Both the position numbers and the translations under genes were made by a program. A model generated the notes under the pieces. The model searched no databases. It was not told the DNA's origin and saw only the letters and a list, made by a program, of their open reading frames with translations. From NCBI GenBank assembly GCA_964583975.1, contig CAZOXU010000001.1:35552-99551 (forward strand): a stretch of DNA of 64,000 bases. The letters are read 5' to 3'. The stretch is from an uncultured Planctomycetales bacterium. Its GTDB lineage: Bacteria > Omnitrophota > Gorgyraeia > Zapsychrales > Fredricksoniimonadaceae. Below, one piece after another: positions 20,757 to 39,947 of this stretch (position 1 is the first letter of the stretch; every line of letters begins with the position of its first letter).

Positions 20757-21478
20757 AAATCATCTTCAAGATAAAGAATACGAGCACACTGATCACAGCT
20801 CACTAACTGATCATTCATTTTAATCTGATGAATAATCTGCTCTGTCAAATGCATAAAACATCCGCCACACGCATGATCCTTAACAGGAACTATTCCTAAA
20901 CCTTCTTTATTTTGCAAAACTCTTTCGTAACGGCTTAAAATATCCGGACGCACATCGGGGGTTACACGAGCTCTTTGGGATTCCTTTACCTTTAACTGAT
21001 CACCCGCAACGGCAATGGCATCCTCAAGCTGTTTTTTCTTGATATTGAATTCTTTCTCAAAAGTTGCTACAACAGCCTTTTCAACTTCGACAGCCTTGCG
21101 TGCAGCTTCAATCTCATCCATACCTAAAAGAAGTTTTTCTTCTACTAAAGATTTATCAGCCTTAATATTTTCAATCTCCATCAATTTCGCCTGATATTCT
21201 TTGTTGGTCTTTAAAGCCAATAGTTGCCCATCAGCCTTAATAATGCCTTCTTCTTTGGATTTAAGATCACCTTCTAATTCTTTTTGTTTTAAAAGGACCT
21301 GTTTTAACTGATCCTCAAGACTTTTAAATGTAGATTTTTTTGATTCAAATTCTTGCTTTAGCGCTTCGATCTCTGATGGTTTATCTTTGAGTTCCATCTT
21401 AAGACGATAGGCTTCAAAGTCCATAGCTTGTAATTCTATAAGTTTTTTGATCTGATCTTTTATTGAAATGGTCGTCAT
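20753..21478 (-). CDS. COG1579-type zinc-ribbon / coiled-coil protein (putative nucleic-acid binding)
   Basis: A long coiled coil followed by a C-terminal C4 zinc ribbon (CGGC...CDQC). Confidence 0.65.
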   Translation of the reverse strand: MTTISIKDQIKKLIELQAMDFEAYRLKMELKDKPSEIEALKQEFESKKSTFKSLEDQLKQVLLKQKELEGDLKSKEEGIIKADGQLLALKTNKEYQAKLMEIENIKADKSLVEEKLLLGMDEIEAARKAVEVEKAVVATFEKEFNIKKKQLEDAIAVAGDQLKVKESQRARVTPDVRPDILSRYERVLQNKEGLGIVPVKDHACGGCFMHLTEQIIHQIKMNDQLVSCDQCARILYLEDDL

Positions 21479-21747: not shown

Positions 21748-22440
21748 TTACTTTTCCATTTTTTCTAAAGCTGAGACGGCTTCGGGGCCTAGATTGGTAA
21801 ATTGGACTCTAATGCGGTATGTTTTTCCAGCTACAATGTCTTCACAATCTAAAACTTCCCCTTCAATGGCCGTAATTTGGGGATAAGAAAAAGGAAATTG
21901 GATATTAAAAACAAGTACGGTTCCTGCTGGATAAGGCTCCAAAGAAAAAAACTTTAACCCTCCGCGACTTATATCCTGAAACCAAGCTAAAGTATGTATG
22001 CCATCTTGTTTGTCTTTCAAATAAAAAAGAGCCATGAATTTCTGTTCAATACGCACATGGGCCCGCTGTTCGGGTGGCGGAGTCTTTTCTAAATTGTAGC
22101 GCTCCATTTGCTCCAAGGCAGCAGTTGCTTCAGGAGACAATTGTATAAACTTAACTCCTATCTTATGCACATTATTGGGAACGACCTTTTGCACATTGAC
22201 CACTTCGCCTTCCATAGCCACTTCGCCATCATAAGGAAAATTGACGATGAGACTAAATATGGTGCCGTTTGGGTAGGAATCGAGTGCAAAGAAACTTAAA
22301 CCGCCTTTGGAAATGTCTGATAATTTAGATATATCAAAAACTTTCTGAGGGCTATTTTTAAGCGCAAACTTGACAACAAATGATTTTCGAAAACGCGTAT
22401 GAATACGATTATCTTTCATAAGATATCTTTTACCACGCAT
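21748..22440 (-). CDS. Tandem PilZ-domain protein (c-di-GMP receptor)
   Basis: Two repeats, each with RxxxR (RFRKSF, RIEQKF) and D-x-S-x-GG (DISKGGLSFF, DISRGGLKFF) motifs. Confidence 0.7.
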   Translation of the reverse strand: MRGKRYLMKDNRIHTRFRKSFVVKFALKNSPQKVFDISKLSDISKGGLSFFALDSYPNGTIFSLIVNFPYDGEVAMEGEVVNVQKVVPNNVHKIGVKFIQLSPEATAALEQMERYNLEKTPPPEQRAHVRIEQKFMALFYLKDKQDGIHTLAWFQDISRGGLKFFSLEPYPAGTVLVFNIQFPFSYPQITAIEGEVLDCEDIVAGKTYRIRVQFTNLGPEAVSALEKMEK

Positions 22441-22478
22441 CCATATAAAAAACCATCTAAAACCTTGAATAAATAAAC

Positions 22479-25400
22479 TTAGATCTTCGCCACTTGCTCA
22501 AATGAGCGAGTATCTTCTAATCCTAAGATAGGTAGGACACTGTTAAGAGGAGTAATACGAAGAATAACGGGGATAACGCCTGAAAAATCTCCTTTTTGAA
22601 ATTCTGCAACCATCGCTGGATTTCCGCCAAAGGCGGACCAGCCTCTGGCTGGAAACTTCACTGCAACACCTTGAGCATCTTTAGTGATATCCAGCCCCAT
22701 ATTCTTAGCGTTTAAGTCAATACCACCTTTTGCAGCCACTTGAGCTGGATCTTCGCGCTCTGCTGTATCATCAACCCTTTTGAATTCAACCATCGCTGCA
22801 TCTGAAGCATTTAAACTAATTTCTGAGGAAACCCTATTAGAGAAAAACTCTCCGGTAAAGCCAAATCCAAATAACATGTCAGGAAAACGAGCCTTAAGGA
22901 ATGCTTTTAATGTTTCATTCAATGCTGTCCTCACCTTTATGAACTGATCGTGATCAATCAAAGACACCCCATCCCCATCTGATCGCTCTTCTTGTGAAGA
23001 ACCCGCACGCACTAAATTAGTAATATTAATTTCAAGACCAAGGACACTATTGCTGACTTCCAAATCTTTAGCTTCGATCCCCAGATCCAATCTGGTGTTC
23101 AAATCAACCAGAATCTTATACTTGTATTTTTCAATTCCTATCTTTAACGCTTCTTGTTCCTTTGCAATCTGTTCCTTTATTTGATCTTTTGAAATTTGAT
23201 CTAATAGCCTGCTCAAGAATCTTGGATCACTACCTTCTAAAACCCAAGGGTGAGATCTTTCAAAAATTCGAACAAGCCTCCATGCTTCTTTGTACCGGCC
23301 GGCTGCTTTCAAAGACTCAAAATCTATTTCTAATTTCTTTAAAAGTCTTCGTTGTTTTGACTCCAGATGAACATTTAATTCCAATAAAACATCTTCCTCA
23401 TCCATATACAACAGAGGATTTTGTTCTTTAAATCTAATGATTAAATCTTCAGCTCCTTTGAAATCGTCCCTCTCTACAAATTCTCTAACATTCGAATTCA
23501 GCACCCTCAAAGATTCTTTCCTTTCAGATTCTTCTTTAGGAAAATCTGCTTTGCGATGTGCCAAAATAATTTGTTGAGCAATAATTACTCTTTGCGCATT
23601 CGTTGTTGGACCATACTGTTTTTCTTCCTCGATGACGCGCATTTTCCACTCATCAAAAAGACTAGAAAAAACGACTTGCGGATTATTTTTAAGATATTGA
23701 TCATCATCTAACGGAAGCTGATCATCAAACCTTCCCTGTCTCATTTCAATAAGAAATCCATTAAAATAAAACAACTCATCTTCATCTTTAACAGAGAAGC
23801 CTTTGACAATCCTATCCCTATCTTGATCAAAAATATCTCTGCGTTTCTTTTGTATAAATCTCTCCCCAGCGCTAATCATGTTCTCTTTAACGAAGTTTTT
23901 AGTTCCAATTTGGATTTGACGCCTTAATATGTCAACTCTCCAGGCCCAATAAAAAATGGATGAATAATAATCTTCAACTGGCAACTGAAAACTATTTTTC
24001 TCTTCTAATCTCATACTTTGACTATTCAATGGCCACCCACTCTTCACAGCAATTAAAAACATATAAAAATGATACAAGGCTTCTCGCTCATCATAGATCG
24101 TTGGATCTGGCTCTAACAATTTTTTATTTCGTTCTAAAATAGCATTAATGACCTGATTAAATCGCTCTGGCGTAGCTTCATCTGCAAGCCCTTCTACTTC
24201 ATCAATCATTTGAACTGTTTCTTTAGATGGATCCCTATCAAACGCTTTCCTAAAATTCACCTGTGTTTGACCTTCCTTATATTCTTCAAAATTGGTTGAT
24301 ATCATCCACTGGACATAATCAATAAAATCTTTAAACGCAAGAAGTTGCGGACTATCCGGGGCAGATGCATTCATCGCTGCATCAGAAAACTTTTCAGCAG
24401 CTTTGGCATCAACAACATAGGTTACATTAGAATGAGCCTGCAAATAGGAGGCTGAGCTTTCAGGTGAGATTGAACCTGTTACAGATTGATATACAGCCTC
24501 AGCTTTCTTATCTCCGGTGGCTGCAATCATAACTTCTTGAGCGTCCATAATGGTTCCAATACCCACACTCAAGGCTTCGACTGGCATCAAAGAAACATCA
24601 TCTTTAAAATACCTACCGTTATCAATGATGGTTTGAATCGCCAAATAGACATGCCTGGTCCGTGAACGGGCAATTTCTTGAGCATTTTCAAACTTAACAT
24701 CATTAGGATTAAGGCCTAGTGATCCAACGGCATCACGAAACACTTGGAGGTTTTGATAATCTTGAGCATCTAAATAAATGACGGTTTTCTGCTTCCTGAT
24801 CTTGCGAGTTAAACGTTCGATAGCTTCAGGTATTTGAGGATTATTGGCCGCAACAAATTTCTCGGTTAAAAACCTAATCAGCTCTACTTCTTCTCTTAAT
24901 TGGGCATGCCTTTGCAAAACTTGCTTAACCTTCTCAACTCCACCTTTAACATAGAACTCATTGAATCCTCTGAGATTTTCAATATTCCCAGCTTCAGCAC
25001 CATTAATCACAATAATCGGTTCATTAAATGCTATATGACGGTCTGTACCAATCCCGCCATAGGCTAGCTCAACGCCACCAGCATCCCTAATAACCTTTTC
25101 ATAACGCTCTACCTCTGCCTCGATATCTGTAGCATTACCATTTAAAAGATGCGCATTTTCTTCCTTCCATCCCAAATCCAATTTCCTCAATTTGCTAAAT
25201 AAATGTGTTTCCATATATTGCCTGTAGCTTTGGGAATTCTTGTCCCACTGCTCAGCTTCAGGCCCTACATAATATTCATCCATGTTAATAGTAATCAAAT
25301 TAGAAAGATCGATTTGTTCAGCTTTGACAATTTCTACAAATAATCTATAAAATTCTTCCTGGGTTCCGCCCGTAGGTAAAATAACTACTGTTTTCTTCTT

Positions 25401-26975
25401 TAAATGATTATTGATCTTAACAATTTCAGCCATACGTCTGGCAAAACGATAACCAACAGATTCAGGCAGGTCATATGTTTCGCCTTTAACTTTACCTACA
25501 TTCCATTTAGATATTTTAAGATGATTGCTTACCTTCCATCTCCTCATTGCTCTGTATAAGGTTAGGTCACCACCTTCAGATTTGCGCTTATTTACTAAAA
25601 TTCCAGAATTATTAGGCACACTATCAATTAATCGTCTTTCTAATTCTCTACTCGTCGATCTCTGTGTGGGATAAAGTTTTGTAGTTGGTAAAGGTATTTC
25701 AAAATCTTGCGCTGCTTTATACAAAGTCTGATCTCCACCATTTTCTATCGTTTCATGAATTAAAAAACTCGCATTATTAGGCAACCCTGCCTTGTCTCTT
25801 TCTGCCAACTTTGCTACCACTGATTCTGGAGTCGGATACTTTATACTCATGGCTCGATCAACCGCCACTGTAGCTATAGCTAAATCACCGACAGCCTCTG
25901 TGCTTTCGCCAGCTTGTAAACTTTGCACCCTTTGAATTAAACGATCAGGGGCGATTTCAAAAAACTTTTCTCCACCAGAGAAATACTTGCGAGCAATAGG
26001 TTGTTTGCTTACCGCATCCATATCTTCCTTTATATAATTAAACACACCTTTTTTATAAGCCTTCAGATACTGCTCATAAATTTTCTCTTTATCTTTTACG
26101 TCATCAGAGAGAACGCCGCCAGTCTTAGCCTTATTGCTGTAAACTTGATTCAAGAGAGCATCTTTCAAAGCTAGCTTGTACCAGGAAGCTAGGATCATAG
26201 AATGAAAAATCTGACGTAAAGGAGCGAAGTTTTTGCCCTCATTAACTTCTTTTTCTATTTCTGGAAGGATGAGATCGCGAACGATTTGATTTGAATCCTG
26301 TGCCCGTACGGCATTCTTATTCATCGCCAAATAATCTTCTTCCAACATCACCTTCAAATGCGAACCAACCACATAGGCTGTATTATTACGTTCTAAAATC
26401 TTAGCCTTATCAGCCATGATCCAAACCTTATTGAAGGTATTAACAGGCACCTCTTTGTCACCATAGAGTTGCTGGGCTTTAGCATAGATTCTGCTCCAAA
26501 ACTCCTTACCCAATTGCTTCTCTGGGTAGATTAACGAGGCAGTTAATTGTTTAAGGATATAATCCTGAGCCAACATATCCCGACCCAGCTCAGTTTTGCC
26601 TAATTCCTCTGGAACGATCCTATCTTTCTCATAGGGAGATAAATTGACCCACAAGTCTGCCTCGGGGATAGTTAAAGCGGCTAGAAAATATTTGATTAAT
26701 TTCTGCGATTCTAATTGTAGGGGCGAGGCGCCTGCCGACGAGGCAGGGATTTGCACAGATAATCCCGAATGACCTGTATCTAGGATAAAATCGAATAACA
26801 ACGGATTCTCAGGATGGACCTTCAGGCCTTTGATCAGCACAGGAGTATAGGTAGAGCTCAAATTTACCATGGTGCCCGGCTCGGGCAAAGGAGTCGAAGC
26901 ATAGCTGCGCTGAGGAGCAATGACCGAAGTAGATATAAAGCTAATAATAAGACATAGGGAAATAATACGTTTCAT
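22479..26975 (-). CDS. Large secreted protein (1498 aa) with an internal glucosamine-6-phosphate deaminase / 6-phosphogluconolactonase (NagB-fold) domain
   Basis: Signal peptide MKRIISLCLIISFISTSVIA. Central region matches NagB/Pgl motifs (VVILPTGGTQEEFYRLFVEIVK, INMDEYYVG, YGGIGTDRHIAFNEP, SVGIGTIMDAQEVMIAATGDKKAEAV). The N- and C-terminal ~450 aa each carry no motif I recognise. Confidence 0.6.
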   Translation of the reverse strand: MKRIISLCLIISFISTSVIAPQRSYASTPLPEPGTMVNLSSTYTPVLIKGLKVHPENPLLFDFILDTGHSGLSVQIPASSAGASPLQLESQKLIKYFLAALTIPEADLWVNLSPYEKDRIVPEELGKTELGRDMLAQDYILKQLTASLIYPEKQLGKEFWSRIYAKAQQLYGDKEVPVNTFNKVWIMADKAKILERNNTAYVVGSHLKVMLEEDYLAMNKNAVRAQDSNQIVRDLILPEIEKEVNEGKNFAPLRQIFHSMILASWYKLALKDALLNQVYSNKAKTGGVLSDDVKDKEKIYEQYLKAYKKGVFNYIKEDMDAVSKQPIARKYFSGGEKFFEIAPDRLIQRVQSLQAGESTEAVGDLAIATVAVDRAMSIKYPTPESVVAKLAERDKAGLPNNASFLIHETIENGGDQTLYKAAQDFEIPLPTTKLYPTQRSTSRELERRLIDSVPNNSGILVNKRKSEGGDLTLYRAMRRWKVSNHLKISKWNVGKVKGETYDLPESVGYRFARRMAEIVKINNHLKKKTVVILPTGGTQEEFYRLFVEIVKAEQIDLSNLITINMDEYYVGPEAEQWDKNSQSYRQYMETHLFSKLRKLDLGWKEENAHLLNGNATDIEAEVERYEKVIRDAGGVELAYGGIGTDRHIAFNEPIIVINGAEAGNIENLRGFNEFYVKGGVEKVKQVLQRHAQLREEVELIRFLTEKFVAANNPQIPEAIERLTRKIRKQKTVIYLDAQDYQNLQVFRDAVGSLGLNPNDVKFENAQEIARSRTRHVYLAIQTIIDNGRYFKDDVSLMPVEALSVGIGTIMDAQEVMIAATGDKKAEAVYQSVTGSISPESSASYLQAHSNVTYVVDAKAAEKFSDAAMNASAPDSPQLLAFKDFIDYVQWMISTNFEEYKEGQTQVNFRKAFDRDPSKETVQMIDEVEGLADEATPERFNQVINAILERNKKLLEPDPTIYDEREALYHFYMFLIAVKSGWPLNSQSMRLEEKNSFQLPVEDYYSSIFYWAWRVDILRRQIQIGTKNFVKENMISAGERFIQKKRRDIFDQDRDRIVKGFSVKDEDELFYFNGFLIEMRQGRFDDQLPLDDDQYLKNNPQVVFSSLFDEWKMRVIEEEKQYGPTTNAQRVIIAQQIILAHRKADFPKEESERKESLRVLNSNVREFVERDDFKGAEDLIIRFKEQNPLLYMDEEDVLLELNVHLESKQRRLLKKLEIDFESLKAAGRYKEAWRLVRIFERSHPWVLEGSDPRFLSRLLDQISKDQIKEQIAKEQEALKIGIEKYKYKILVDLNTRLDLGIEAKDLEVSNSVLGLEINITNLVRAGSSQEERSDGDGVSLIDHDQFIKVRTALNETLKAFLKARFPDMLFGFGFTGEFFSNRVSSEISLNASDAAMVEFKRVDDTAEREDPAQVAAKGGIDLNAKNMGLDITKDAQGVAVKFPARGWSAFGGNPAMVAEFQKGDFSGVIPVILRITPLNSVLPILGLEDTRSFEQVAKI

Positions 26976-27023
26976 AGGTACAAAAAAGATATCACATAAT
27001 ATATATATTAGCCAATTCTCGAC

Positions 27024-27062
27024 AAAAAAATCCCCTTAACTCCTTTAAAAGAAATTAAGGGG
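27024..27062 (-). terminator. Rho-independent terminator after glnK
   Basis: On the minus strand, ccccttaa-tttcttttaaaggag-ttaagggg followed by a TTTTTTT run. Confidence 0.55.
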
Positions 27063-27073
27063 AAAATACCATT

Positions 27074-27415
27074 CTAACCAATGGCCTTAGAACCTTCTTC
27101 ACCCGTGCGGATACGAATACACCGAGGCAGATCCAAAACAAAGACCTTACCATCACCGATCTTGCCTGTTCGCGCTCCTTTGATAATAGCCTTAATGGTT
27201 GGCTCGACATAATCCTCATTAACAGCTATTTCAATCTGAATCTTCCTGAGCAAATTACCTGTTTCCTTAACACCTCGGTAATACTCATCAACACCTACCT
27301 GACGGCCGTGCCCTAAAACTTCACTAACCGTAATCAAATTAACCTCGGCTGCATAGAGCTCTCTTTTGACATCTTCAAGTCGATGCGGTTGTATAATAGC
27401 GATGACCAATTTCAT
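27074..27415 (-). CDS. glnK: Nitrogen regulatory protein P-II. The start was moved to MKLVIAII to give the canonical 113 aa.
   Basis: P-II fold with T-loop RGVKETGNLLRK (the Tyr site is replaced) and a C-terminal GDGKVFV. It is paired with amt. Confidence 0.85.
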   Translation of the reverse strand: MKLVIAIIQPHRLEDVKRELYAAEVNLITVSEVLGHGRQVGVDEYYRGVKETGNLLRKIQIEIAVNEDYVEPTIKAIIKGARTGKIGDGKVFVLDLPRCIRIRTGEEGSKAIG

Positions 27416-29690: not shown

Positions 29691-31388
29691 ATGAAACCCC
29701 GATCTACCGCCCTATTAGGCCAACTATTAGTTGATAATAAAATTATCACTTCTGAGCAGCTTGAAATTGCCCTCAAGAAACAAAAAGAAACTGGCGATCC
29801 TTTAGGCATTACCCTCTTAAAGCTCGGATTTGTTGATGAAGAAAACTATGTGCTTCCCATTGTAGCCAACCAAATGGGAGTTTCCTATGTTAATCTCAAC
29901 CAGATGGAAATAGCCAAGGAAGTTATCAATAAAATCCCAGCCAAGATTGCCATTTACTACAAATTAATCCCCATTGACTATAGTGATGGGATTTTAACAA
30001 TAGCCACGACCAAACCTTTAGATATTAACATCATTGATGGCGTTAGTTTGGTTGTCAGCGACAAAATCAGAACTGTGCTGGCTAGCGAGAAAGAAGTTAT
30101 CGAAAATATCCGCACCTACTACGGAGTCGGAGCAGAAACCATCGACCAAATGATGGAAACTGCCCAAATTAAACCAACCCCCGAAAAAGAAGAAGATATT
30201 GCGGAAATTGACTCTGAAGCCACCATTGCTAAATTCTTAAATCAAGTTTTTATTGAAGCCTATGAGAGCCGGGCTACTGATATTCATATTGAACCCTATG
30301 AAAATGAATTAAAAATCCGTTACCGTATTGATGGCGTTTTATCTGACACGCAACTGCCAGCCAACATCAATCACTTTCGCGATTTCATCAATGCCCGTAT
30401 TAAAATTATGTCGAATCTTAATATTGCTGAAAAACGCCTTCCCCAAGATGGCCGATTTAAAGTCAAAATAGGTGATATTAATTTGGATTTACGTGTATCT
30501 TTTTTGCCAACCCAATTTGGAGAAAGCGTTGTTATTCGTTTATTGCGTTCTTCTTCCCTTTATAACCTCAAAGATTTAGGTTTATCCCCTGAAGATCTCA
30601 AAAGGTTGGATGGTTTACTTAGCAAACCCCATGGTATCATTTTTGTTACCGGCCCAACTGGTTCAGGAAAAACGACCACTTTGTATGCTTGCCTTTCCCA
30701 TATCAATAAAGCCGATAATAAAATTATTACGATCGAAGATCCTATTGAATACCAGCTCAAAGGCATTATGCAAATTCAAATCCATCCTGAAATAGGATTA
30801 ACATTTGCACGAGGGTTACGATCCATGTTACGTCACGATCCCGATGTCATGATGGTTGGCGAAGTCCGTGATGTGGAAACAGCCCGGACGGCCGTACAAA
30901 TAGCCATGACTGGTCACTTGATTTTCTCAACCCTGCACACGAATGATGCTGCCAGTGGTGTGACCCGCCTCATTGATATGGGTATTGATCCTTACTTAGT
31001 CACCAGTTCGGTAGAATGTTTTATTGCTCAACGTTTGGTCCGCCTATTGTGCCCTAAATGTAAAACCCCTGGAAAATTCTCTGAAGATGTTGTTAAAGAT
31101 TTTGGATTAGATCCTCAAATCGAAAGAAACATTACGATCTATGAAGGCACCGGCTGCAAGGCCTGTAATTTTAGCGGTTATTATGGCCGAGAAGGAATTT
31201 ATGAATTTTTAGTTCTAAATGATGAAATACGAGAAATGATCATGCATCGCTCCTCTTCAACCCAAATTAAGAATAAAGCTACCTCTTTAGGAATGACTAC
31301 TCTTCTTCAATCTGGATGGGAAAAGGTTAAACTGGGGTTAACCTCGGCTAGTGAAGTGATTCGTGTAACGAAAGAAGATTATAAATAA
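29691..31388 (+). CDS. gspE: Type II secretion / type IV pilus assembly ATPase (GspE/PilB family) with an N-terminal MshEN-like domain
   Basis: Walker A GPTGSGKTT, Asp box, His box and tetracysteine CPKC...CKAC. The N-terminus carries two ~24-aa MshEN-type repeats (LLGQLLVDNKIITSEQLEIALKKQ and LGITLLKLGFVDEENYVLPIVANQ). Confidence 0.9.
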   Translation: MKPRSTALLGQLLVDNKIITSEQLEIALKKQKETGDPLGITLLKLGFVDEENYVLPIVANQMGVSYVNLNQMEIAKEVINKIPAKIAIYYKLIPIDYSDGILTIATTKPLDINIIDGVSLVVSDKIRTVLASEKEVIENIRTYYGVGAETIDQMMETAQIKPTPEKEEDIAEIDSEATIAKFLNQVFIEAYESRATDIHIEPYENELKIRYRIDGVLSDTQLPANINHFRDFINARIKIMSNLNIAEKRLPQDGRFKVKIGDINLDLRVSFLPTQFGESVVIRLLRSSSLYNLKDLGLSPEDLKRLDGLLSKPHGIIFVTGPTGSGKTTTLYACLSHINKADNKIITIEDPIEYQLKGIMQIQIHPEIGLTFARGLRSMLRHDPDVMMVGEVRDVETARTAVQIAMTGHLIFSTLHTNDAASGVTRLIDMGIDPYLVTSSVECFIAQRLVRLLCPKCKTPGKFSEDVVKDFGLDPQIERNITIYEGTGCKACNFSGYYGREGIYEFLVLNDEIREMIMHRSSSTQIKNKATSLGMTTLLQSGWEKVKLGLTSASEVIRVTKEDYK

Positions 31389-32599
31389 TGCCTCTTTTTT
31401 CTTATACAGCTAAGCAAGGACCCAAAAAAACTGTCCAAGGACAGATAGAGGCAGAAAGTGTAGACACAGCCATTCGAAAGATTATGGAATTGGGATATAC
31501 GCCTATTGATGTCTCTAAACAAAACCCAACAAAAACACCTCGTTTTGAGTTTATCTTAAACCAAAAAATCCCAAACAAAGAAATCATCTTATTTACACGA
31601 CAATTAAGCGATCTCATTGAAGCTGACGTGCCTCTTTTAAAATCCTTAAATCATATCTTCAAACAAACTAAGCATCCTATATTTAAGGCTATGCTTCAAA
31701 AGATATGTACGGCGGTTAAAGACGGATCCATGCTTTCTGAATCTTTAGAAAAATTCCCAGAAACATTTCCAACAGTATACGTTAACATCATTCGATCAGG
31801 AGAATTTAGCGGTAATCTTACTGCTGTTTTGCAACGTCTAGCAGATTTTAGTGAGCGGCAACAAGACATTCAAAACCAAATCAGGGCCAGCTTGATTTAT
31901 CCTGCCTTAATTCTGAGTGTCGGAGCAGCTACCATTTTTGTCTTACTCACTTGGGTTATTCCTCGTCTAACAGCTATCTTTGAAGATCTGAATCAAGCCT
32001 TACCCTTGCCAACTCAAATTTTATTAGCCACTAGTGACTTCTTTGTACATTTCTGGTGGCTCATTGTATTTATTCTGGCTACTCTAGGATTTGCTTTGCA
32101 GCAATTGAATCGCACACCCGCAGGAAAATTGAAAATAGATCGATTTAAACTCCAAGTTCCTTTTTTAGGCAATTTCTTGAAAAATGTGGAGATTGAACGT
32201 TTCAGCCGCACCTTAGCGACATTGTTAGAAAATGGCGTTACGATTATTTCTGCTTTAAAAGCAGTGGCACTGGTTACTGAAAACCAAATCTTTAAAGATG
32301 TGATCAAAAAAATTGAATCAGATGTCAGCAATGGAGAAAGTTTGGCCAAGGCTATTGAAAAAACCACATTATTTCCTGAGACAGCTACTCAAATGATTAC
32401 GGTTGGTGAAGAAACTGGTCACATGACTAAAGGACTCCATAAGCTTGCCCAATACTATGAACGATTGATTCAGAATTTTATAAAGAGTATGACCACCTTA
32501 ATCGAACCCATTTTGATACTTGTATTAGGAACGGTTGTTGGTTCGGTTGTTTTAGCTATGCTATTACCTATTTTCCAAATGAATTTATTGATCAAATAA
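31388..32599 (+). CDS. gspF: Type II secretion system inner-membrane platform protein (GspF/PilC family)
   Basis: Duplicated T2SF domains, 3 TM helices, 403 aa. Confidence 0.85.
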   Translation: MPLFSYTAKQGPKKTVQGQIEAESVDTAIRKIMELGYTPIDVSKQNPTKTPRFEFILNQKIPNKEIILFTRQLSDLIEADVPLLKSLNHIFKQTKHPIFKAMLQKICTAVKDGSMLSESLEKFPETFPTVYVNIIRSGEFSGNLTAVLQRLADFSERQQDIQNQIRASLIYPALILSVGAATIFVLLTWVIPRLTAIFEDLNQALPLPTQILLATSDFFVHFWWLIVFILATLGFALQQLNRTPAGKLKIDRFKLQVPFLGNFLKNVEIERFSRTLATLLENGVTIISALKAVALVTENQIFKDVIKKIESDVSNGESLAKAIEKTTLFPETATQMITVGEETGHMTKGLHKLAQYYERLIQNFIKSMTTLIEPILILVLGTVVGSVVLAMLLPIFQMNLLIK

Positions 32600-32621
32600 T
32601 AACAAAATTCGGAGGCATTCA

Positions 32622-33065
32622 ATGTCACAATCAAACAAAGGCTTTACGCTCGTTGAAATTCTTTTAGTGGTCATCATTATTGGTATTCTAGCAGCCATGA
32701 TTATCCCTAATATTGCTGGACGCGGTGAAGAAGCCAGACGTGGTGCAGCTAAGGCAGATATCATGGCTAATCTTTCCTCGGCCTTAGATATGTACGAAGT
32801 TGATAATGGCCGGTACCCAACCACTGAGCAAGGACTGGCTGCTTTATTGAGCGAACCCAGCACCTCTCCTACGCCTACTCACTGGAGAGGACCTTACCTC
32901 AAAAAGAAAAAACTTCCTATTGATCCTTGGGGTAAGAATTACATTTATGTCTGTCCTGGTGTACGCAACCCTGATAGCTACGACCTGTCTTCTTCCGGTG
33001 CTGATAAAATTGAAAGCCCTGATGATATCGTCAACTGGGAAGACAATTCTTCGATCCAAAAATAA
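32622..33065 (+). CDS. gspG: Major pseudopilin GspG
   Basis: Prepilin leader KGFTLVEIL with E+5, plus the GspG hallmarks AKADI...LDMYEVDNGRYPTTEQGL...W.GPY. Confidence 0.85.
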   Translation: MSQSNKGFTLVEILLVVIIIGILAAMIIPNIAGRGEEARRGAAKADIMANLSSALDMYEVDNGRYPTTEQGLAALLSEPSTSPTPTHWRGPYLKKKKLPIDPWGKNYIYVCPGVRNPDSYDLSSSGADKIESPDDIVNWEDNSSIQK

Positions 33066-33508
33066 TGAAAGCTTTTACCTTAACGGAGATGCTCTTAATT
33101 GTGGTGCTGCTTACCGTAGCAGCAGGTTTGTCGCTTCCCAATTTTAGTAAATCTTACACAAAGCTACAATTAGACACTTCTGTTACGACACTCACTCATA
33201 TGATGCGTTATGCGCAAAGCAGGGCCATTACTCAAAACAAGAAAATACGACTTTTATTTAATGATCCCACTGAGAAATACCAATTGTTTGAAGAAAAAGA
33301 AGAACAATATGTACCTTTAAACGGTCGCTGGGGAAAAGTTGTTAGTTTTCCTAAAGGCATTACTGTAAAACCCCTTCACCTATCTATAGATTTTTTCCCA
33401 CGAGGTGAAATTGAAAAAACCGACGTACAAATCTGTCAGGATAAAGATTGTGCTATTGTTACAACTCAACAACAGCGCTCGCAAATAGAGGTTTTATATG
33501 CCAATTAA
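33065..33508 (+). CDS. Minor pseudopilin, GspH/FimT-like
   Basis: Prepilin-type N-terminus MKAFTLTEMLLIVVLL; 147 aa. Confidence 0.55.
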   Translation: MKAFTLTEMLLIVVLLTVAAGLSLPNFSKSYTKLQLDTSVTTLTHMMRYAQSRAITQNKKIRLLFNDPTEKYQLFEEKEEQYVPLNGRWGKVVSFPKGITVKPLHLSIDFFPRGEIEKTDVQICQDKDCAIVTTQQQRSQIEVLYAN

Positions 33509-33914
33509 AACGATCCCTCACAACCAAGGAGCTTTGTTGCTAGAAGTCTTGATGGTGATGGTCATTCTTGCGGTTGGATTAACATGTATTATTCAATCTC
33601 TTTCTTCTAGCATGAAAGCATTAAACTATGCCAGTAATTATTCCCAGGCCGCCTTTCTAATTGATAACAAACTATCTGAAATACTTATTAATCAATCTAT
33701 CGAAGAAAATTTCCAAGACAGCGGCAACTTCAATCCTCCTTTTGAGGCTTATCATTTTCAAATTTCGACTGAACCGATGAAATGGACTGATGATCCATCG
33801 CCTTCCGAAACAGTCAGCCAAATTCGACTTAGTGTCGATTGGCCCGTTGGCACTAAAAATCAAGAGATTTCTACAGCCCTCTGTTTACTCCATGCAACGG
33901 AGGATAAAAATTGA
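33498..33914 (+). CDS. Minor pseudopilin, GspI-like
   Basis: Prepilin-type hydrophobic N-terminus QGALLLEVLMVMVILAV with E+5; 138 aa. Confidence 0.5.
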   Translation: MPIKTIPHNQGALLLEVLMVMVILAVGLTCIIQSLSSSMKALNYASNYSQAAFLIDNKLSEILINQSIEENFQDSGNFNPPFEAYHFQISTEPMKWTDDPSPSETVSQIRLSVDWPVGTKNQEISTALCLLHATEDKN

Positions 33915-34684
33915 TCATGAAAATAAAATCAAATATGGCTTTTACTCTGATTGAGTTCTTAATTGCGTTTGCTATTTTCTCAACCATTGCTTTGAGTGTT
34001 TATGGCACTTTCTACAGCGGTATGCAAATAAACAAGAAAGCCAAGAATTTTGAACTCTTCTATCGCAATATCTACTGGTCTTTTGATCTTATACAGCGCG
34101 ATCTAGAAAATATGGTCGCTTTTAACGATGCCGATAAGAGTCTGAAGGCATTTTCAGGCAATGCTGATGGGTTTTCCCTAGTCATCCCTACAAATTCAGG
34201 ACTCAAAAAAGTCAGTTACCGATTATCCGAACCAAATAAAATTCAAGTACATAAAACCCAACTAGGATATCACACCTCAAAAAACGTTCCCATAACTACC
34301 GGTCACATTCAAAATGAGGATCAAATTAATTATCTTGTCCGACAAGAACAAAGTTGGGGTCAAATCAGCCCTGAAGATGAGATCCTTAACAAACAAGTGC
34401 TCAACAATTCTTTAAAAATTTCTTATGCGAGCGCTGATAAAGAAACAGTCCTCTGGCATGAGGAATGGACCGATGATGGTTTTCCTGTTGGAGTACGCTT
34501 GGAAATGACTTTTATAGATCCAGACAACCCTAAACATTCCGTAGTGATTCGCAAGATTATTCCTATTTCTTTGAGAACAAATAATACTAATCCTGTATTA
34601 AATCAAAATCCTTTGTTTGATCTGAATAATTTATTAAACCAAAATACTAATCCTTTAGGAAATTTACTAAAAATTAACCAATGA
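33911..34684 (+). CDS. Minor pseudopilin, GspJ-like
   Basis: N-terminus MAFTLIEFLIAFAIF; 257 aa. Confidence 0.5.
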   Translation: MIMKIKSNMAFTLIEFLIAFAIFSTIALSVYGTFYSGMQINKKAKNFELFYRNIYWSFDLIQRDLENMVAFNDADKSLKAFSGNADGFSLVIPTNSGLKKVSYRLSEPNKIQVHKTQLGYHTSKNVPITTGHIQNEDQINYLVRQEQSWGQISPEDEILNKQVLNNSLKISYASADKETVLWHEEWTDDGFPVGVRLEMTFIDPDNPKHSVVIRKIIPISLRTNNTNPVLNQNPLFDLNNLLNQNTNPLGNLLKINQ

Positions 34685-35670
34685 TGCTCAGAACCAAAAA
34701 TAATTCTGGTATAATACTAATTGTTGTCTTGTGGATCATGGTCATTTTGACCTTGCTGACGATCGGCATAGGATGGCAAACCCATATTGAACTTACCCTA
34801 GCTAAGAATTTCAGAGGGAAAGTTCAATCCAAATATATTGCCCTTTCTGGCCTGACCTATGCCATGGATCTTATAAAAAACAGCACAAACAATAAAGACC
34901 TTCACAAACCGGATGTTCTAAATTCGCAAGTTTTTTCAAAAACTATACCCTTAGGAACAGGTTATTTTAAAGTGAAAAGTATCCAAGACGTAGAAAGCCG
35001 AATTAATCTTAATGCTATAGATCCAAATAATTATCGAATTCTAACTAATCTCTTAGAAAAATTAGGCATTGATCGCGAAACCGCTATGACCATCACTTAT
35101 TCTGTTATTGACTGGAAAGATACTGACAAGACTGTTTTGAATCCACCCTATGGAGCAGAAAATGACTTTTATCAAGAGATTGGTTATAACGCCAAAAACC
35201 AACCCTTGGAAAGCGTTGAAGAAATCCTCCTAATTAGAGGAATGAACAAAGATATTTACCAAAAAATAAAAGATTTTATTACAATTTATCCCACTAGTGG
35301 CGCCTTATTAATTAATATAGATACTGCTTCTGAAGAAGTATTACGGGCCTTTGCAGAAAATTTTGCCGGACCTTTAACAAATACAAGTATCGAAGATGCA
35401 AGCAGCCTTGTTGATAAGATTATGGAATACCGAAGAACACTAACAGATACAAGTACGACTGCCCAAGAACGGGCTGTTGAAACTAATAAAATGAGCCTCA
35501 ATTCTAAAGAAAATAGTATTTTCCTTACCATGCAGTCTCAAAGACAAAGAACTTCTCAATATTTTAATATTCAAGTTGTAGGGGTTGATGAAGAATCTCA
35601 GGCCTCAACAGAAATTTCAACTACTATTCAAATCAAAGATTTGGCTGTTCTAAGCTGGCACAGAAATTAA
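34681..35670 (+). CDS. Minor pseudopilin GspK-like
   Basis: Hydrophobic N-terminus without E+5, a large ~330 aa size, and the VESRINLNA motif typical of GspK. Confidence 0.55.
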   Translation: MMLRTKNNSGIILIVVLWIMVILTLLTIGIGWQTHIELTLAKNFRGKVQSKYIALSGLTYAMDLIKNSTNNKDLHKPDVLNSQVFSKTIPLGTGYFKVKSIQDVESRINLNAIDPNNYRILTNLLEKLGIDRETAMTITYSVIDWKDTDKTVLNPPYGAENDFYQEIGYNAKNQPLESVEEILLIRGMNKDIYQKIKDFITIYPTSGALLINIDTASEEVLRAFAENFAGPLTNTSIEDASSLVDKIMEYRRTLTDTSTTAQERAVETNKMSLNSKENSIFLTMQSQRQRTSQYFNIQVVGVDEESQASTEISTTIQIKDLAVLSWHRN

Positions 35671-35671
35671 T

Positions 35672-37096
35672 ATGATTAAAGATAATCGCACTATCATTGA
35701 AATCACAAGTACCTATATCAAGGTGTTACAGGTATCGGTCCAACGCAATAATCCCATCCTTAGTAATCTAGAAATCATTGAAACTAAAAAACATACTGAA
35801 CCACAAATCATTGAGAAACTTTCTCGCTTAAATCTTAAAACTAAAAACACCCTTCTGGTATTACCTAAACGTAATGTAATTTTAAAAAACTTCTCCCTTC
35901 CATCCCAAAACGAAGATGAAATTAAAAAAATATTATCTCTTAAAATCCTTCAGGAAATTCCTTTCAGCCAGGAAGAAATTGTCTTTGATCACCTCATTGT
36001 TGATAAATTATCTGATGGATACACCAAGGTTCTTGCAGCTATTAGTCCCTTGGATCAGATTTCAACCAATCTTAAAATATTAAAAAAAGCGGGCTTAAAT
36101 GTTACAAGCGTACTGATTAATTCTTTTGGTATTATTGGATGGTTTCGCCAACTCTTACCCCAAGAAAAGAAACCCATTAGCATTCTAAACCTTGATTGTG
36201 ATGGTGCTGAACTATGTTTTTGCGCGCAAGGGAAATTCCTGTTTTCGCGCAATTTTAATTTTAACCTTAATGATTTAAATGATCAAAATATTGCTGACAT
36301 TCTCAACCAAATAGAATTAACTCACAAAGCCTATCAAAATGAATTCCCCAAACTTAATATAGAGAAAATCTTTATTGCTTCTGACATATTCCAAATTGAA
36401 ACATTGAAAAAAAGTATCCTTGATCACTTTAATCTGCCTGTTGAGGTTATTAAGCCCTCTGAACGAATCACCTGCGAATTACAGGCCCTCTCCTTAATCA
36501 AAAATAATCCAATGATTTCTATTACAGGTAGCTGGGGATTTGTTGTTGCTGCTGGAGACCATCAAATTGATCTGATGCCACGCTCTCTTAAAATCGAAGA
36601 ACAAACGCCTTTAACTATAAATCGATTTCTTCCCTTTTTGCTGTCTGCCAGCATACTACTAGTCTTAATTGTTATTGCTTCTTCCATGGGGATTTATCAA
36701 AAATATTTGCACCTTGAACGACTGCAAAAAACCTATTCAAGCATTCAAGAGACAACAAAAACTGGAAATACAAAACTTAACGATATACGCATATTTCGTC
36801 ATTTACTTGATCAACACCTGCCCATGGCCGATGTATTACGTGATATTTATCTAAAAACACCTGCGGGAATTACATTTCGCTTTATTAACTTTAATAGAGA
36901 TTATTCTTTCACCATTGATGGCGTAGGTCCTTCGCAAGAAGCTATTAAAGACTTTCAACAAAGGCTTACGGATTTACCTTGGTTTAAGGATGTAAATATT
37001 GAATTTAGTAACCCTAGGCAATATAACAAACAAGAACTATTTGATTACAGAATAGCTTGTCAGATTATTGGGCCTGAAGAATTTAAAAAACAATGA
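35672..37096 (+). CDS. GspL-like assembly protein (cytoplasmic PilM/actin-like domain + TM + periplasmic PilN-like domain)
   Basis: A ~310-aa cytoplasmic domain, a single TM (FLPFLLSASILLVLIVIASSMGIY) and a ~150-aa periplasmic tail. Confidence 0.55.
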   Translation: MIKDNRTIIEITSTYIKVLQVSVQRNNPILSNLEIIETKKHTEPQIIEKLSRLNLKTKNTLLVLPKRNVILKNFSLPSQNEDEIKKILSLKILQEIPFSQEEIVFDHLIVDKLSDGYTKVLAAISPLDQISTNLKILKKAGLNVTSVLINSFGIIGWFRQLLPQEKKPISILNLDCDGAELCFCAQGKFLFSRNFNFNLNDLNDQNIADILNQIELTHKAYQNEFPKLNIEKIFIASDIFQIETLKKSILDHFNLPVEVIKPSERITCELQALSLIKNNPMISITGSWGFVVAAGDHQIDLMPRSLKIEEQTPLTINRFLPFLLSASILLVLIVIASSMGIYQKYLHLERLQKTYSSIQETTKTGNTKLNDIRIFRHLLDQHLPMADVLRDIYLKTPAGITFRFINFNRDYSFTIDGVGPSQEAIKDFQQRLTDLPWFKDVNIEFSNPRQYNKQELFDYRIACQIIGPEEFKKQ

Positions 37097-37641
37097 AAAA
37101 AATCCACGCTCCTAACATCATTTCGACCAATAAAGAAAAACGCATCTTTATTTTAGGCTGTCTATTACTCATTACGTTTTTTATCTACCGGGGGGTCTAT
37201 TTACCGTTGATGAATGCCAAAGAATCCTTGGAAGAGAAAGTCTTATTATTTGAAAACCAGATCTATAAATCAAATCGCGTCATCTCCCAAGTGGAACCAT
37301 TTCAAAAAGAATATTTGGAAGCTACCAAATGCTATAAACAGGCCCTTTCTGACAAACAAGAATTGTCGAATATATCTTCAGAACTACAAAGTATTGCTCA
37401 AAGAACTCAGCTTAAGATAACAGCAGACCTTCCCAAAAAATCTAAAGCCACCCTCTATAAAAACGACTTTACAATTAATCTACTTTTGGAAGGTAATTCT
37501 AAAAATATCCTGGAATTTCTCTATGCCTTGCAAAACTGCCCTCATTTATATAATGTTAATGAATTGAGGATTTTCACGTCTCCATCCAACGACTCCCAGT
37601 TGCAATGCCAGCTGGTTTTGACCAAATCTTTAATTAAATAA
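37093..37641 (+). CDS. GspM/PilO-like bitopic inner-membrane protein
   Basis: N-terminal TM helix plus a ~140-aa periplasmic domain, positioned after the gspL-like gene. Confidence 0.45.
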   Translation: MKKIHAPNIISTNKEKRIFILGCLLLITFFIYRGVYLPLMNAKESLEEKVLLFENQIYKSNRVISQVEPFQKEYLEATKCYKQALSDKQELSNISSELQSIAQRTQLKITADLPKKSKATLYKNDFTINLLLEGNSKNILEFLYALQNCPHLYNVNELRIFTSPSNDSQLQCQLVLTKSLIK

Positions 37642-37725
37642 ACTATTCTTAGATCTAGATTAATAGAAAGCGTATTATCCGATTGACACTAGTTTTTATT
37701 TATGTCAAATTAGGTCTACTAAACC

Positions 37726-38241
37726 ATGTTTCAATTTAGATTACCCTTATTCAATAGCAGCAATATATTTGATTCCCTAACCAAGGTTCTTGCGTTAGTT
37801 TCCGTTTTACTATTTATATATATACTAGCTAGATTCTTTGCTATCAATAAAGAAATGGCAACGTTAAACCCAAATTCTATGACTACGACAGCTTCTATCG
37901 ATTCTAAAAATAAAATTCTACCGTCTTTCCCTCCTTTTACTCAATATGCCCAAGCTGTGGAAGGACAAAACTTTTTCCAAACACCTAAAATAGTCGTAGC
38001 AGAAGCTACCCCCGAAGTCCCTAAGGAACCTACACCTCAAGATTTAACTAAAAACATTAAAGTGCTTGGGATTATGTTATCTCAAAAGCCTCAGGCCGTT
38101 GTGCTCAACCAGACTACTAACCAAACACTTATTCTGTCGTTAGGGGACACTATCAACAATTTAAGACTAAGCGAAATCCAAAAAGACCAAATAATTTTTG
38201 ACCATGATGGACAGTTGTTAAAAGTCCATTACACCAAATAA
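37726..38241 (+). CDS. PilP/GspC-like secretin-interacting protein
   Basis: N-terminal TM, a Pro/Thr-rich linker and a C-terminal beta domain (VLGIMLSQKPQAVVLN...LKVHY), immediately upstream of the secretin. Confidence 0.4.
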   Translation: MFQFRLPLFNSSNIFDSLTKVLALVSVLLFIYILARFFAINKEMATLNPNSMTTTASIDSKNKILPSFPPFTQYAQAVEGQNFFQTPKIVVAEATPEVPKEPTPQDLTKNIKVLGIMLSQKPQAVVLNQTTNQTLILSLGDTINNLRLSEIQKDQIIFDHDGQLLKVHYTK

Positions 38242-39947
38242 TGACACGACATAAATTTATATTATTGATAACTATATTAATCCTAAGCGGACCTATAGTT
38301 CCTTGCTTAGCCCAAGGAAAGAATCAATCCCAAAAGGATTTACTTATCGAAAAGACCCTTGATGCCTTTACTCCTCCCAATATCTATCAGGAGACTGTCT
38401 CGGATAATGAGTCTTCCATTTCACGCTCTAACTCCCAAGAATTATCCTCCACATCTGTTTCGCCTGATCAAGCGGATGCTGACGTCAATGCCGATGGTTC
38501 TCCTGCTGTCAAGAATACCGATGATATTCCCAACGATGAAACTATTGATATGTTGGAATTAAAAGATGTAGATATATCCGATGTACTTAAATTACTTTCC
38601 CAGAAAAGCGGATTAAATATTATTGCTAACCAAAATGTTCAAGGAAAAGTGACAGTCTTCTTAAAAGATGTAAAACTCAAAGATGCTTTAGGTATAGTTT
38701 TAGATTCCAACAACCTGGCGTATAAGGTTGAAGAAGGCATCATTAGAGTTATGCCTGCTCGCGAATTTGAAGATAGATATGGATATAAATTTGGAGGCAA
38801 TGTCAAAAATCTGGCTGTCCATTTAAACTACGCTAATGTCAACGATGTGACTGCTATTTTGATGCAAATAAAAAGTTTCTCAGGAAAAATTCTTGCCGAT
38901 ATTAAATCCAACACCCTGGTCCTCATTGATTCTTCTGAGAAATTAAACATCATGGAGAATTTAATTAAGAAAATTGATGTCCCAGTGCAAACCGAAGTAT
39001 TTGAACTGCTCTATGCTCAAGCTAAGACTGTCTCGGAAAAATTGGCAGAAACCCTCAACAAAGATACTGGTAAGGTCCGTTTTGATGAACGCACCAATAA
39101 AATAGTTGTTACTGACACGCCTTCTAAGATCAAAGAAATTTCTAAACTTATTAAGGCTTTTGATGTTAAAGAAACACAAGTTCTTATTGAAGCTAAAATT
39201 ATTCAAGTGACTTTAGATAAACAAAATCAATTTGGGATTGATTGGGAAGGATTAATCAAGAAACATAGCAATATTGACTTTAAATCTAATTTCAAAGTTA
39301 TACCTGATACAGCACCTAATTCTGGTTCATTACGTATCGGCACCGTCAGTGATAATCAATATGGAATACTTTTGCAAGCCTTGCAAACCTCGACCCACTC
39401 AACCATTCTTTCATCCCCAAGCATTACAGCTTTAAACAATCATGAGGCCAAAATATTGGTGGGTACCACTCAGCCTTATGTGACATCAACAACAACAACG
39501 CCCTCTTCTGGACCAGCTACGACTGCCGAAAGTATTAACTTTATTGATATAGGCGTTAAGCTTTACGTTACACCAACCATTCATCAAGATAATTTTATTA
39601 CAATGAAAATCCGGCCTGAAGTAAGTTCGGCTGGAACTTCCTTAACCACCAGCAACGGCAATAAAATTCCAATTGTAGACACCTCTCAGGCGGAAACTAA
39701 TGTTTCTGTTAAAGATGGGGTGACCATTATCATTGGTGGGCTTATTAAAGACCAATTAATCAAATCATCTAACAGGGTTCCCGTGCTAGGCAATATTCCA
39801 TTGTTAGGTGCAGCATTTCGCAACAGTGATGACCACCCTATTAAATCTGAAATTATCATCTTCCTGACCCCTAAAATTGTGACAGGAGATGTCCCTGTTG
39901 AAGTAAAAACCCGCCAGTATCCTGATAACGATAAAAAATCTAATTAA
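38241..39947 (+). CDS. gspD: Secretin (GspD/PilQ family) outer-membrane channel
   Basis: Signal peptide, N0/N1-type domains and a C-terminal secretin domain (VPVLGNIPLLGAAFRN...IIIFLTPKIV). Confidence 0.85.
   Translation: MTRHKFILLITILILSGPIVPCLAQGKNQSQKDLLIEKTLDAFTPPNIYQETVSDNESSISRSNSQELSSTSVSPDQADADVNADGSPAVKNTDDIPNDETIDMLELKDVDISDVLKLLSQKSGLNIIANQNVQGKVTVFLKDVKLKDALGIVLDSNNLAYKVEEGIIRVMPAREFEDRYGYKFGGNVKNLAVHLNYANVNDVTAILMQIKSFSGKILADIKSNTLVLIDSSEKLNIMENLIKKIDVPVQTEVFELLYAQAKTVSEKLAETLNKDTGKVRFDERTNKIVVTDTPSKIKEISKLIKAFDVKETQVLIEAKIIQVTLDKQNQFGIDWEGLIKKHSNIDFKSNFKVIPDTAPNSGSLRIGTVSDNQYGILLQALQTSTHSTILSSPSITALNNHEAKILVGTTQPYVTSTTTTPSSGPATTAESINFIDIGVKLYVTPTIHQDNFITMKIRPEVSSAGTSLTTSNGNKIPIVDTSQAETNVSVKDGVTIIIGGLIKDQLIKSSNRVPVLGNIPLLGAAFRNSDDHPIKSEIIIFLTPKIVTGDVPVEVKTRQYPDNDKKSN

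Follow-up and report, generated by a model that had tools for sequence, protein, structure and literature searches.

Among described systems, the giant proteins of Omnitrophota are close to the protein analyzed here. Giant genes in this phylum are reported to have, in general, a type II secretion system (T2SS)-like locus before them and small pilZ genes immediately after them. Their products are predicted to be extracellular and hold PGI, FBPase, PGM, TPI, aldolase, PPDK, HEAT, TPR, and GGDEF domains, and extracellular preprocessing of sugars and possible proteolytic cleavage have been suggested for them (10.1101/2023.11.21.568195). Another preprint reports "multi-enzyme metabolic" giant proteins with signal peptides and with the Pfam repertoire that recurs in the family described below (10.64898/2026.06.07.730766). 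In the present work, we analyzed a 64,000-nt stretch of DNA (the window; positions 35,552 to 99,551 of contig CAZOXU010000001.1, assembly GCA_964583975.1) from an uncultured Planctomycetales bacterium that GTDB places in Omnitrophota, and in particular an open reading frame (ORF) on its minus strand (22479..26975) that encodes a protein of 1498 aa with an embedded NagB domain. We propose that this protein, one member of a large family, is a modular enzyme carrier that is exported through Sec, is probably processed, and is active outside the cytoplasm of the producing cell, and we put the probability of this reading at roughly 0.55.

Like the Archaeovorin and multi-enzyme giants (West-Roberts et al. 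2023; Nielsen & Lui 2026), the carrier family comes from Omnitrophota, bears signal peptides, and is predicted to be extracytoplasmic. The two groups have PGM/PMM, PGI, FBPase, hexokinase, PPDK, REC, HATPase, GNAT, methyltransferase, HEAT/TPR, and GGDEF domains in common. At the locus studied here, the layout is similar too, with T2SS-like genes upstream and pilZ immediately downstream, and a family member of 1.5 thousand residues takes the place of the giant gene. Nevertheless, giants run from at least 10 thousand to 85 thousand residues or more, have many transmembrane helices, and are defined by size (a gene of >90 kb for West-Roberts et al.; at least 10 thousand residues for Nielsen & Lui), a threshold that a 1498-aa protein does not reach. 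The carrier family, by contrast, is defined by its N and C modules and by a DxAM motif that neither preprint mentions.

A likeness may also be drawn to MARTX and other multi-effector or polymorphic toxins, in which fixed termini surround interchangeable central enzyme domains, processing sites lie between them, and cysteine is scarce; the likeness is one of resemblance, not of homology. Unlike in MARTX toxins, Pfam and NCBIfam models revealed no glycine-rich repeats, cysteine protease domain, or type I secretion signal, a Sec signal peptide is present instead, and the cargo consists of housekeeping-type metabolic enzymes. A further comparison is with PilZ- and MshEN-mediated control of T2SS and type IV pilus ATPases, as in MshE and in Xanthomonas PilZ-FimX-PilB. 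Intact RxxxR/DxSxxG motifs and a GspE with MshEN beside a T2SS-like operon predict binding of cyclic di-GMP (c-di-GMP) at this locus as well, although, unlike in those systems, the big protein is linked to these components only by predicted cotranscription in this genome and not family-wide. We found no description of the N/C-module family or of DxAM in the literature searched (Seymour 2023, an Antarctic-lake Omnitrophota paper, and both giant-protein preprints) or through keyword and motif searches, and an earlier description elsewhere is possible. As far as that literature shows, the family is undescribed, with the Omnitrophota multi-enzyme giants and the multi-effector toxins as its conceptual neighbors.

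Constant ends and variable cargo

A sequence-only reading that preceded this analysis regarded the protein as a highly unusual fusion, in which a NagB-like domain had been embedded between N- and C-terminal extensions of ~450 aa. Database searches gave a different picture: the flanks are conserved family modules (N and C) that recur across >8000 clusters, where they bracket dozens of other cytoplasmic-type enzymes in the same way. A search with the full protein returned >4800 significant proteins, whose named sources were almost all Omnitrophica or Omnitrophota. BLAST mapping of 120 proteins listed from that search (labelled P0001 onward) revealed that 119 match the query in two parts only, aa 1 to ~375 (55-72% identity) and aa ~1400 to 1490 (40-60% identity), and that the region between the two modules varies from protein to protein. 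An N-module profile in HMMER recovered 8195 cluster representatives (clustered at 50% identity) at E<=1e-3 and 6524 at E<=1e-30; in all 150 of the representatives listed, the module begins at residue ~30-45 or, where the sequence is truncated, right at its start.

The phylogenetic range, which had been flagged for checking, is broad in number and narrow in taxonomy. A scan of one genome per species confirmed at least 592 genomic copies. All 79 loci among the matches listed belong to metagenome-assembled genomes (MAGs) of Omnitrophota or to MAGs labelled 'uncultured Planctomycetales', such that, among the sequences searched, the family has been seen only in Omnitrophota. Individual MAGs carry several copies, and tandem arrays with two or three N modules within ~13 kb occur at 10 loci (L050, L008, L011, L012, L039, L041, L047, L057, L072, and L073), of which L050 encodes three complete members consecutively. 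Within the 64-kb window, no second copy was found. Three IMG/VR contigs classed as viral (L081, L082, and L083) also hold members with N modules 55-66% identical; the contigs may be Omnitrophota DNA that was misclassified, the borders of prophages, or phage DNA that truly carries family genes.

Family members range from 0.8 to >3.5 thousand residues and have no transmembrane segment beyond the signal peptide. Each combines a cleavable-looking signal peptide, the N module, at least one cargo domain, and a C module of ~70-100 aa. Precomputed Pfam hits place PGK, enolase, PGAM, PGM, PGI, FBPase, hexokinase, UGPase, GHMP kinase, and other enzymes among the cargo, together with signaling and other domains (REC, HATPase, GGDEF, GNAT, methyltransferase, ACP, DnaJ, AAA+, TPR, and HEAT). 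Enzymes that act consecutively in a pathway may share one chain, as exemplified by P0068 (enolase, PGAM, and PGK) and P0078 (UGPase, PGM, and PGI).

The clean Sec signal peptide noted from the sequence alone was borne out. In the query, it occupies aa 1-26 (26898..26975) and, read directly from the sequence, consists of MKR, an 18-residue hydrophobic core, and SYA|S; no transmembrane segment follows it. Corresponding features, namely a K/R-containing n-region and a hydrophobic core free of acidic residues, are found in 110 of 113 homologues, in which small residues (YAQ, AHA, or SYA at -3/-1) precede the likely cleavage site and a conserved LPxPG lies ~15 residues after the core. The query bears a signal peptide and is very probably extracytoplasmic. 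A lipoprotein reading of its N terminus was rejected because the single cysteine, at position 8, is too early for a lipobox and is preceded by L.

After the signal peptide comes the LPxPG-containing N module of ~350 aa (aa 27-372; 25860..26897), with the motif series LPxPGxMV...WVNLSPYEKDR...DYILKQLTAS...TFNKVWI...RKYFSGG. The C module (aa 1396-1498; 22482..22790) closes the protein with GGIDLNAKNMGLD...[F]DPAM...GxxPVIxxIxPxxxxLPxLGL. The query thereby carries both family signatures, the second being GGIDL...PVIxxIxP...LGL, and GGID falls within the last 110 aa in 108 of the 120 homologues. Neither module matched any Pfam or NCBIfam model or any PDB sequence. AlphaFold2 modeled the short full-length member P0014 as a mixed alpha/beta N core (predicted local distance difference test [pLDDT] 80-95) and a small beta/alpha C module (pLDDT ~80) around a middle of low-confidence helices, and it gave the query N module a predicted template-modeling score of 0.62 with a core pLDDT of 75-88. 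The N module is very highly conserved, with long invariant stretches and with invariant residues of the S87/H180/D188 type, which suggests that it binds a conserved partner or has an activity of its own. A search for independent occurrences of the C module, on giant proteins, for example, yielded mostly short fragments from short contigs.

What separates the cargo units

The borders between modules and cargo are marked by a short peptide, DxAM. Three such sites in the query, DRAM at aa 373-376 (25848..25859), DAAM at aa 865-868 (24372..24383), and DAAM at aa 1392-1395 (22791..22802), split the protein into the N module, cargo unit 1 (aa 377-864), cargo unit 2 (aa 869-1391), and the C module, and this division into an N module, an extension with NagB, a second cargo, and a C module replaces the two ~450-aa extensions. 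The motif occurs 433 times in the 120 family proteins versus 20.8 +/- 4.8 times in shuffled sequences (~20-fold), and its density is 2.56 per 1000 aa in the family versus 0.056 in the other proteins of the window (~45-fold). When a conserved FDPAM within the C module is excluded, 349 sites remain, and these lie ~30 aa past the FSGG that ends the N module and 5-20 aa ahead of the GGID that opens the C module. In P0068, sites at 980, 1471, and 1865 bracket enolase (1001-1459), PGAM (1646-1813), and PGK (1886-2285). Every Pfam domain checked in P0068, P0059, P0104, and P0006 is bracketed in this way, with no site inside any domain, and some members have DxAQ or DxAA at the equivalent position before the C module.

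Two other origins for the motif were discarded. Synonymous codons at its D and A positions follow background usage; because they vary freely, the constraint acts on the peptide, and a DNA-level recombination signal was rejected. Internal translation starts were rejected as well because no conserved Shine-Dalgarno-like sequence lies upstream and because DxAQ and DxAA stand in the equivalent place.

A second family-wide property is the near absence of cysteine. The mature query has 0 cysteines in 1472 residues. Across the family, the content is 0.06%, compared with 0.75% in other ORFs of the window (~12-fold depletion), and 59 of the 120 members have no cysteine after residue 35. Family ORFs recovered independently from genomic loci gave 0.05%.

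Cargo unit 2 (22803..24371) is putative cargo without an assigned function. It has no Pfam match, and a database search with it found no matches at all, the query protein itself included; local BLAST aligned it at 30% identity over 330 aa with the unit that follows the N module in P0009. Cargo unit 1 opens with an N-terminal extension of ~125 aa (aa 377-505; 25461..25847) that matched no Pfam model and for which the proteins fetched included no homologue. By eye, this extension contains an apparent internal duplication, LPNNASFL..GGDQTLYKA / VPNNSGIL..GGDLTLYRA (GLPNNASFLIHETIENGGDQTLYKAA / SVPNNSGILVNKRKSEGGDLTLYRAM), which self-BLAST did not detect.

An embedded NagB domain

The remainder of cargo unit 1 is the NagB-type domain that had been recognized from its motifs, all of which (TGGT, INMDEY, GIGTDRHIAFNEP, and GIGTIMDAQEV...GDKKA) are present in the translation. 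The domain matches PF01182 in Pfam (E=4.5e-09; 36.9 bits, above the cutoff of 27) and TIGR00502 (nagB) in NCBIfam (E=2.6e-59) in two pieces, aa ~505-655 and ~760-865, and sequences of solved NagB structures in the PDB, such as 5hj5, match at E~1e-37. The TIGR00502 score of 200.7 bits falls below the equivalog cutoff of 236.9 because the domain is split. Part 1 (aa 506-655; 25011..25460) holds the TGGT loop, NMDEY with D72, and GIGTDRHIAFNEP with D141, H143, and E148, and part 2 (aa 770-864; 24384..24668) holds R158, R172, and K208. Between them, an insertion of ~115 aa (aa 656-769; 24669..25010) without a Pfam match, which the sequence-only reading had not described, interrupts the domain right after FNEP, between NagB residues ~151 and ~154 and just ahead of the active-site lid.

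Residues were read from an alignment to Vibrio cholerae NagB (5hj5), numbered as in Escherichia coli, and we take their catalytic, phosphate-binding, and allosteric roles to be those of the E. coli enzyme. Catalytic D72, D141, H143, and E148, whose retention had been posed as a check, are all kept, as the family alignment also indicates, and so are the TGGT phosphate loop, R158, R172, and K208. The allosteric N-acetylglucosamine-6-phosphate site (S151/S152, R158, K160, T161, and a free N terminus) is not preserved: K160 is replaced by V and T161 by Y, the insertion starts at 151-152, and the N terminus of the domain is embedded. Because K160 and T161 are replaced and the N terminus is not free, hexameric allostery is unlikely. 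Nonallosteric NagBs exist, so the loss of this site leaves membership in NagB possible.

The embedded domain therefore resembles the reference enzymes (TIGR00502/PF01182; E. coli 1cd5 and V. cholerae 5hj5) across the whole catalytic domain and in its key residues. It is unlike a standard NagB in its setting, a 1498-aa protein with a signal peptide and zero cysteines, in its prelid insertion, and in its subequivalog score. Judged by sequence, it is a member of a known enzyme family in an unusual setting, and it looks catalytically competent. The earlier suggestion of a module acting on sugars or sugar phosphates stands in part: with the TGGT loop, R172, and K208 intact, glucosamine-6-phosphate (GlcN6P) and fructose-6-phosphate (Fru6P) are indicated, and a surface glycan is an unlikely substrate.

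NagB units occur in 10 of the 120 listed family members, and in the family alignment, all 10 carry the insertion at one position. Catalytic motifs are retained in 8 of the 10, the query included, and are degenerate in P0069 and P0056. Because the insertion sits at an identical position with common motifs (DFNEF and QKVTIYLDGL), these data point to one capture of NagB by the family, after which the units diversified, for the most part while selection maintained catalysis. Some NagB-bearing relatives have additional domains that are reminiscent of amino-sugar pathways, such as GNAT in P0006 and a nucleotidyltransferase in P0004.

Directly upstream of the NagB-carrying gene lie amt (ammonium transporter) and glnB/K (P-II) (27074-28749, minus strand), with a strong terminator-like hairpin in between. 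NagB releases or consumes ammonium, and the closeness of amt-glnB/K is perhaps meaningful and perhaps coincidental. Another family member, at L020, sits beside amt-glnK in a different gene order and has no NagB.

Neighboring genes and c-di-GMP

The gene immediately downstream, with a gap of 38 nt, encodes a 230-aa tandem-PilZ protein (21748..22440, minus strand). As had been read from the sequence, it contains two PilZ domains, which match the Pfam model in two stretches (E=5.5e-19), and both pairs of predicted c-di-GMP-binding motifs are complete (RxxxR at 12 and 126; DxSxxG at 42 and 156). Consensus scans placed a 15-bp terminator-like hairpin after glnB/K (27063-27031), followed by a promoter-like site (27025-26996), both on the minus strand within 26996..27063. 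Because of these upstream signals and the 38-nt gap, the big ORF and pilZ probably form their own transcription unit. Downstream of pilZ are two tRNA genes.

A complete T2SS-like operon (29691..39947, plus strand) runs divergently from the block amt - glnB/K - big ORF - pilZ and encodes GspE, GspF, pseudopilins, GspK, PilM/N-GspL, a GspC-like protein, and a secretin. GspE (29691-31388), 2.7 kb from the big ORF, indeed carries the MshEN-like N terminus previously ascribed to it, as evidenced by PF05157 (E=2.5e-11) and by the NCBIfam c-di-GMP motif domain NF053729 (56.8 bits; cutoff, 38).

To what extent does this neighborhood belong to the family? We scored neighbor conservation across 80 loci that hold other family members. 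PilZ was found at 0 of 80 loci by tblastn and among 0 of 43 downstream genes by phmmer; RNase H, a CT398-like gene, YebC, AroD, and GspF were likewise found at 0 of 80 loci each. PII plus Amt occurred at 1 of 80 and GspE-like matches at 2 of 80, the latter weak and divergent, and P0002 and P0007 are surrounded by unrelated housekeeping genes. The earlier proposal of c-di-GMP-controlled surface or secretion biology is, therefore, upheld in its components, which are genuine PilZ and MshEN modules with likely cotranscription, but PilZ adjacency is no family trait. Control of the neighboring T2SS-like machine by c-di-GMP stays plausible because the layout resembles the preprint's Omnitrophota giant-gene loci; its tie to the big protein is circumstantial.

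Proposed function and competing explanations

If the protein is an exported enzyme carrier, its signal peptide would direct Sec passage across the inner membrane, and the N and C modules might serve in targeting, anchoring, or secretion recognition, possibly via the adjacent T2SS-like machine. The prerequisites of a T2SS substrate, a Sec-type signal peptide and a T2SS-like operon in the genome, are both present. DxAM, with its D-x-A-Q/A variants, would be a processing or recognition site that separates the cargo units. The nonallosteric NagB unit would interconvert GlcN6P and Fru6P plus NH4+ outside the cytoplasm, be it in the periplasm, at the cell surface, or where the cell meets its host or prey. 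There it may be part of an externalized sugar-phosphate and amino-sugar toolkit, beside paralogues with PGI, PGM, FBPase, UGPase, hexokinase, and enolase/PGAM/PGK. In this genome, c-di-GMP could gate the neighboring secretion machine through the cotranscribed tandem-PilZ protein and the MshEN-bearing GspE.

Several points weigh against this proposal. What the data show is the architecture, size, and range of the family, the statistics of DxAM, the depletion of cysteine, and the conservation of the NagB residues; that the protein is exported and processed, relies on the T2SS, and acts at a particular site is what we infer, and the signal-peptide calls rest on simple sequence features. A fold search with the N and C modules gave no match, and AlphaFold2 confidence for both is moderate only. 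The subequivalog NagB score means that the insertion may have altered activity, ~8% of family members have no DxAM and possibly use another delimiter, and the loci of other family members do not share the proximity to T2SS and PilZ genes. Also, hexokinase, PGK, UGPase, GHMP kinase, HATPase, and GGDEF cargo in paralogues depends on nucleotides. The periplasm and the medium normally lack these, and a purely extracellular role is difficult to square with this need unless the cytosol of a host or prey cell can be reached. A need for ATP, UTP, or GTP favors either such access or residence in the cytoplasm, the latter being disfavored by signal-peptide topology and cysteine depletion.

Access to a foreign cytosol is the premise of a translocated effector platform, in which the N and C modules would deliver DxAM-delimited cargo into the host or prey cytoplasm and the enzymes would rewire metabolism there. 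NagB would drain GlcN6P, a precursor of UDP-N-acetylglucosamine, weaken cell-wall synthesis, and feed Fru6P to glycolysis, and cleavage at DxAM would free effectors in a MARTX-like manner. Besides the cytoplasmic cofactors that the cargo requires, the bracketed, variable center resembles that of multi-effector toxins, and extreme cysteine depletion is typical of proteins that unfold to cross membranes. Omnitrophota have, moreover, been reported to be host dependent or predatory (PMC10066038; 10.1101/2023.11.21.568195), and the secreted hexokinases of microsporidia are an unrelated parallel (PMC6460350). Nevertheless, the N and C modules display no pore-forming, repeat, or protease features, no cysteine is available for a protease like the MARTX cysteine protease domain, no fold match points to a translocator, and REC, GGDEF, HEAT/TPR, ACP, and DnaJ cargo are not obvious effectors; we regard delivery of this kind as unlikely. 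The nucleotide-dependent cargo and the fusion of pathway neighbors (enolase-PGAM-PGK in P0068) would also be accounted for by a membrane-tethered cytoplasmic metabolon, in which an uncleaved N-terminal anchor keeps the enzymes inside the tiny cell and the N and C modules organize them on the membrane. By the positive-inside rule, however, the positive n-region and hydrophobic core predict an N-in/C-out topology with the bulk of the protein outside, the small residues at -3/-1 resemble signal peptidase I sites, and a 12-fold depletion of cysteine is unexpected for cytoplasmic enzymes, so that we think a metabolon quite improbable.

Near the earlier idea of a sugar-binding module is a structural surface coat or matrix, in which the enzyme-like domains would be mainly binding or decoy modules. 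Cysteine-free, abundant, paralogous exported proteins with conserved termini do resemble S-layer and coat proteins, and the NagB units of P0069 and P0056 are devoid of catalytic motifs. This account has to contend with the 8 of 10 NagB units, the query's among them, that retain catalytic and phosphate-binding residues and with the dominance of consecutive pathway enzymes among the cargo, which suggests selection for catalysis, and we strongly doubt it. The protein might, finally, be an artifact of assembly or annotation, with separate genes joined by a frameshift or a chimeric assembly, as the sequence-only reading had cautioned. We found nothing in favor of such an origin, and it has almost no chance of being right: the N and C modules share a single ORF in >100 independent homologues, the NagB-with-insertion unit recurs in 7-9 other family members from different assemblies, and a 362-kb contig at NCBI has an identical protein recorded for it.

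A 30-nt element and other features of the region

The gene for the C module contains, in frame, a 30-nt GC-rich double-hairpin element, CCAGCC-nnn-GGCTGG TCCGCC-nnn-GGCGGA (22623..22652, minus strand). It adds PARGWSAFGG, a 10-aa insertion that is absent from 23 other aligned C modules. A second copy (positions 6473-6502 of L050, plus strand) lies in a different family protein of a different MAG; its insertion point in the C module is identical (PARGWSASGG), even though the two proteins have diverged on either side of it. A third (20227-20256, plus strand) lies inside the RNase P RNA gene (20000-20372, minus strand; RF00010, 135 bits), in a stretch of 54 nt where the Rfam model has a variable hairpin of 13 nt instead. 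No copy is expected by chance; candidate explanations are a very small palindromic insertion element and an RNA structure under selection.

The 5' end of the RNase P RNA overlaps the 3' end of an RNase HI ORF (20304-20756, minus strand) by ~69 nt. An ORF within this RNA (20102-20344, plus strand) was dismissed as spurious. The window also encodes, at 20753-21478 (minus strand), a homologue of the chlamydial CT398-type protein, with a coiled-coil hairpin and a C4 zinc ribbon.

Implications

Omnitrophota are widespread, mostly uncultured, ultra-small bacteria that are believed to be dependents or predators of other microbes, and the route by which they exploit their partners is an open question. 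A compact, recognizable family of >8000 clusters is a tractable handle on that question. Its proteins are small enough for expression, DxAM allows specific cleavage products to be predicted and then looked for in proteomes already available, and the list of cargo predicts which metabolites are processed outside the cell. The organization of the giant multi-enzyme proteins in the phylum may find an explanation here as well. For annotation, counting exported fusions as cytoplasmic NagB, PGK, enolase, or PGI may overestimate the cell's own pathways.

A bolder proposal, which we offer as speculative and on balance unlikely, is that the N and C modules with DxAM constitute a previously unrecognized, phylum-wide delivery-and-processing platform by which host-dependent Omnitrophota would place dozens of housekeeping-type metabolic enzymes per genome into the host or prey interface or cytoplasm, with the giants as expanded versions. 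If this were true, sugar-phosphate metabolism would be partly externalized, or that of the host hijacked, with NagB draining GlcN6P from cell-wall synthesis. The oddity that had been noticed in one gene extends to thousands of proteins, and from it follow concrete predictions, open to test, on the ways in which a major uncultured phylum interacts with its hosts.

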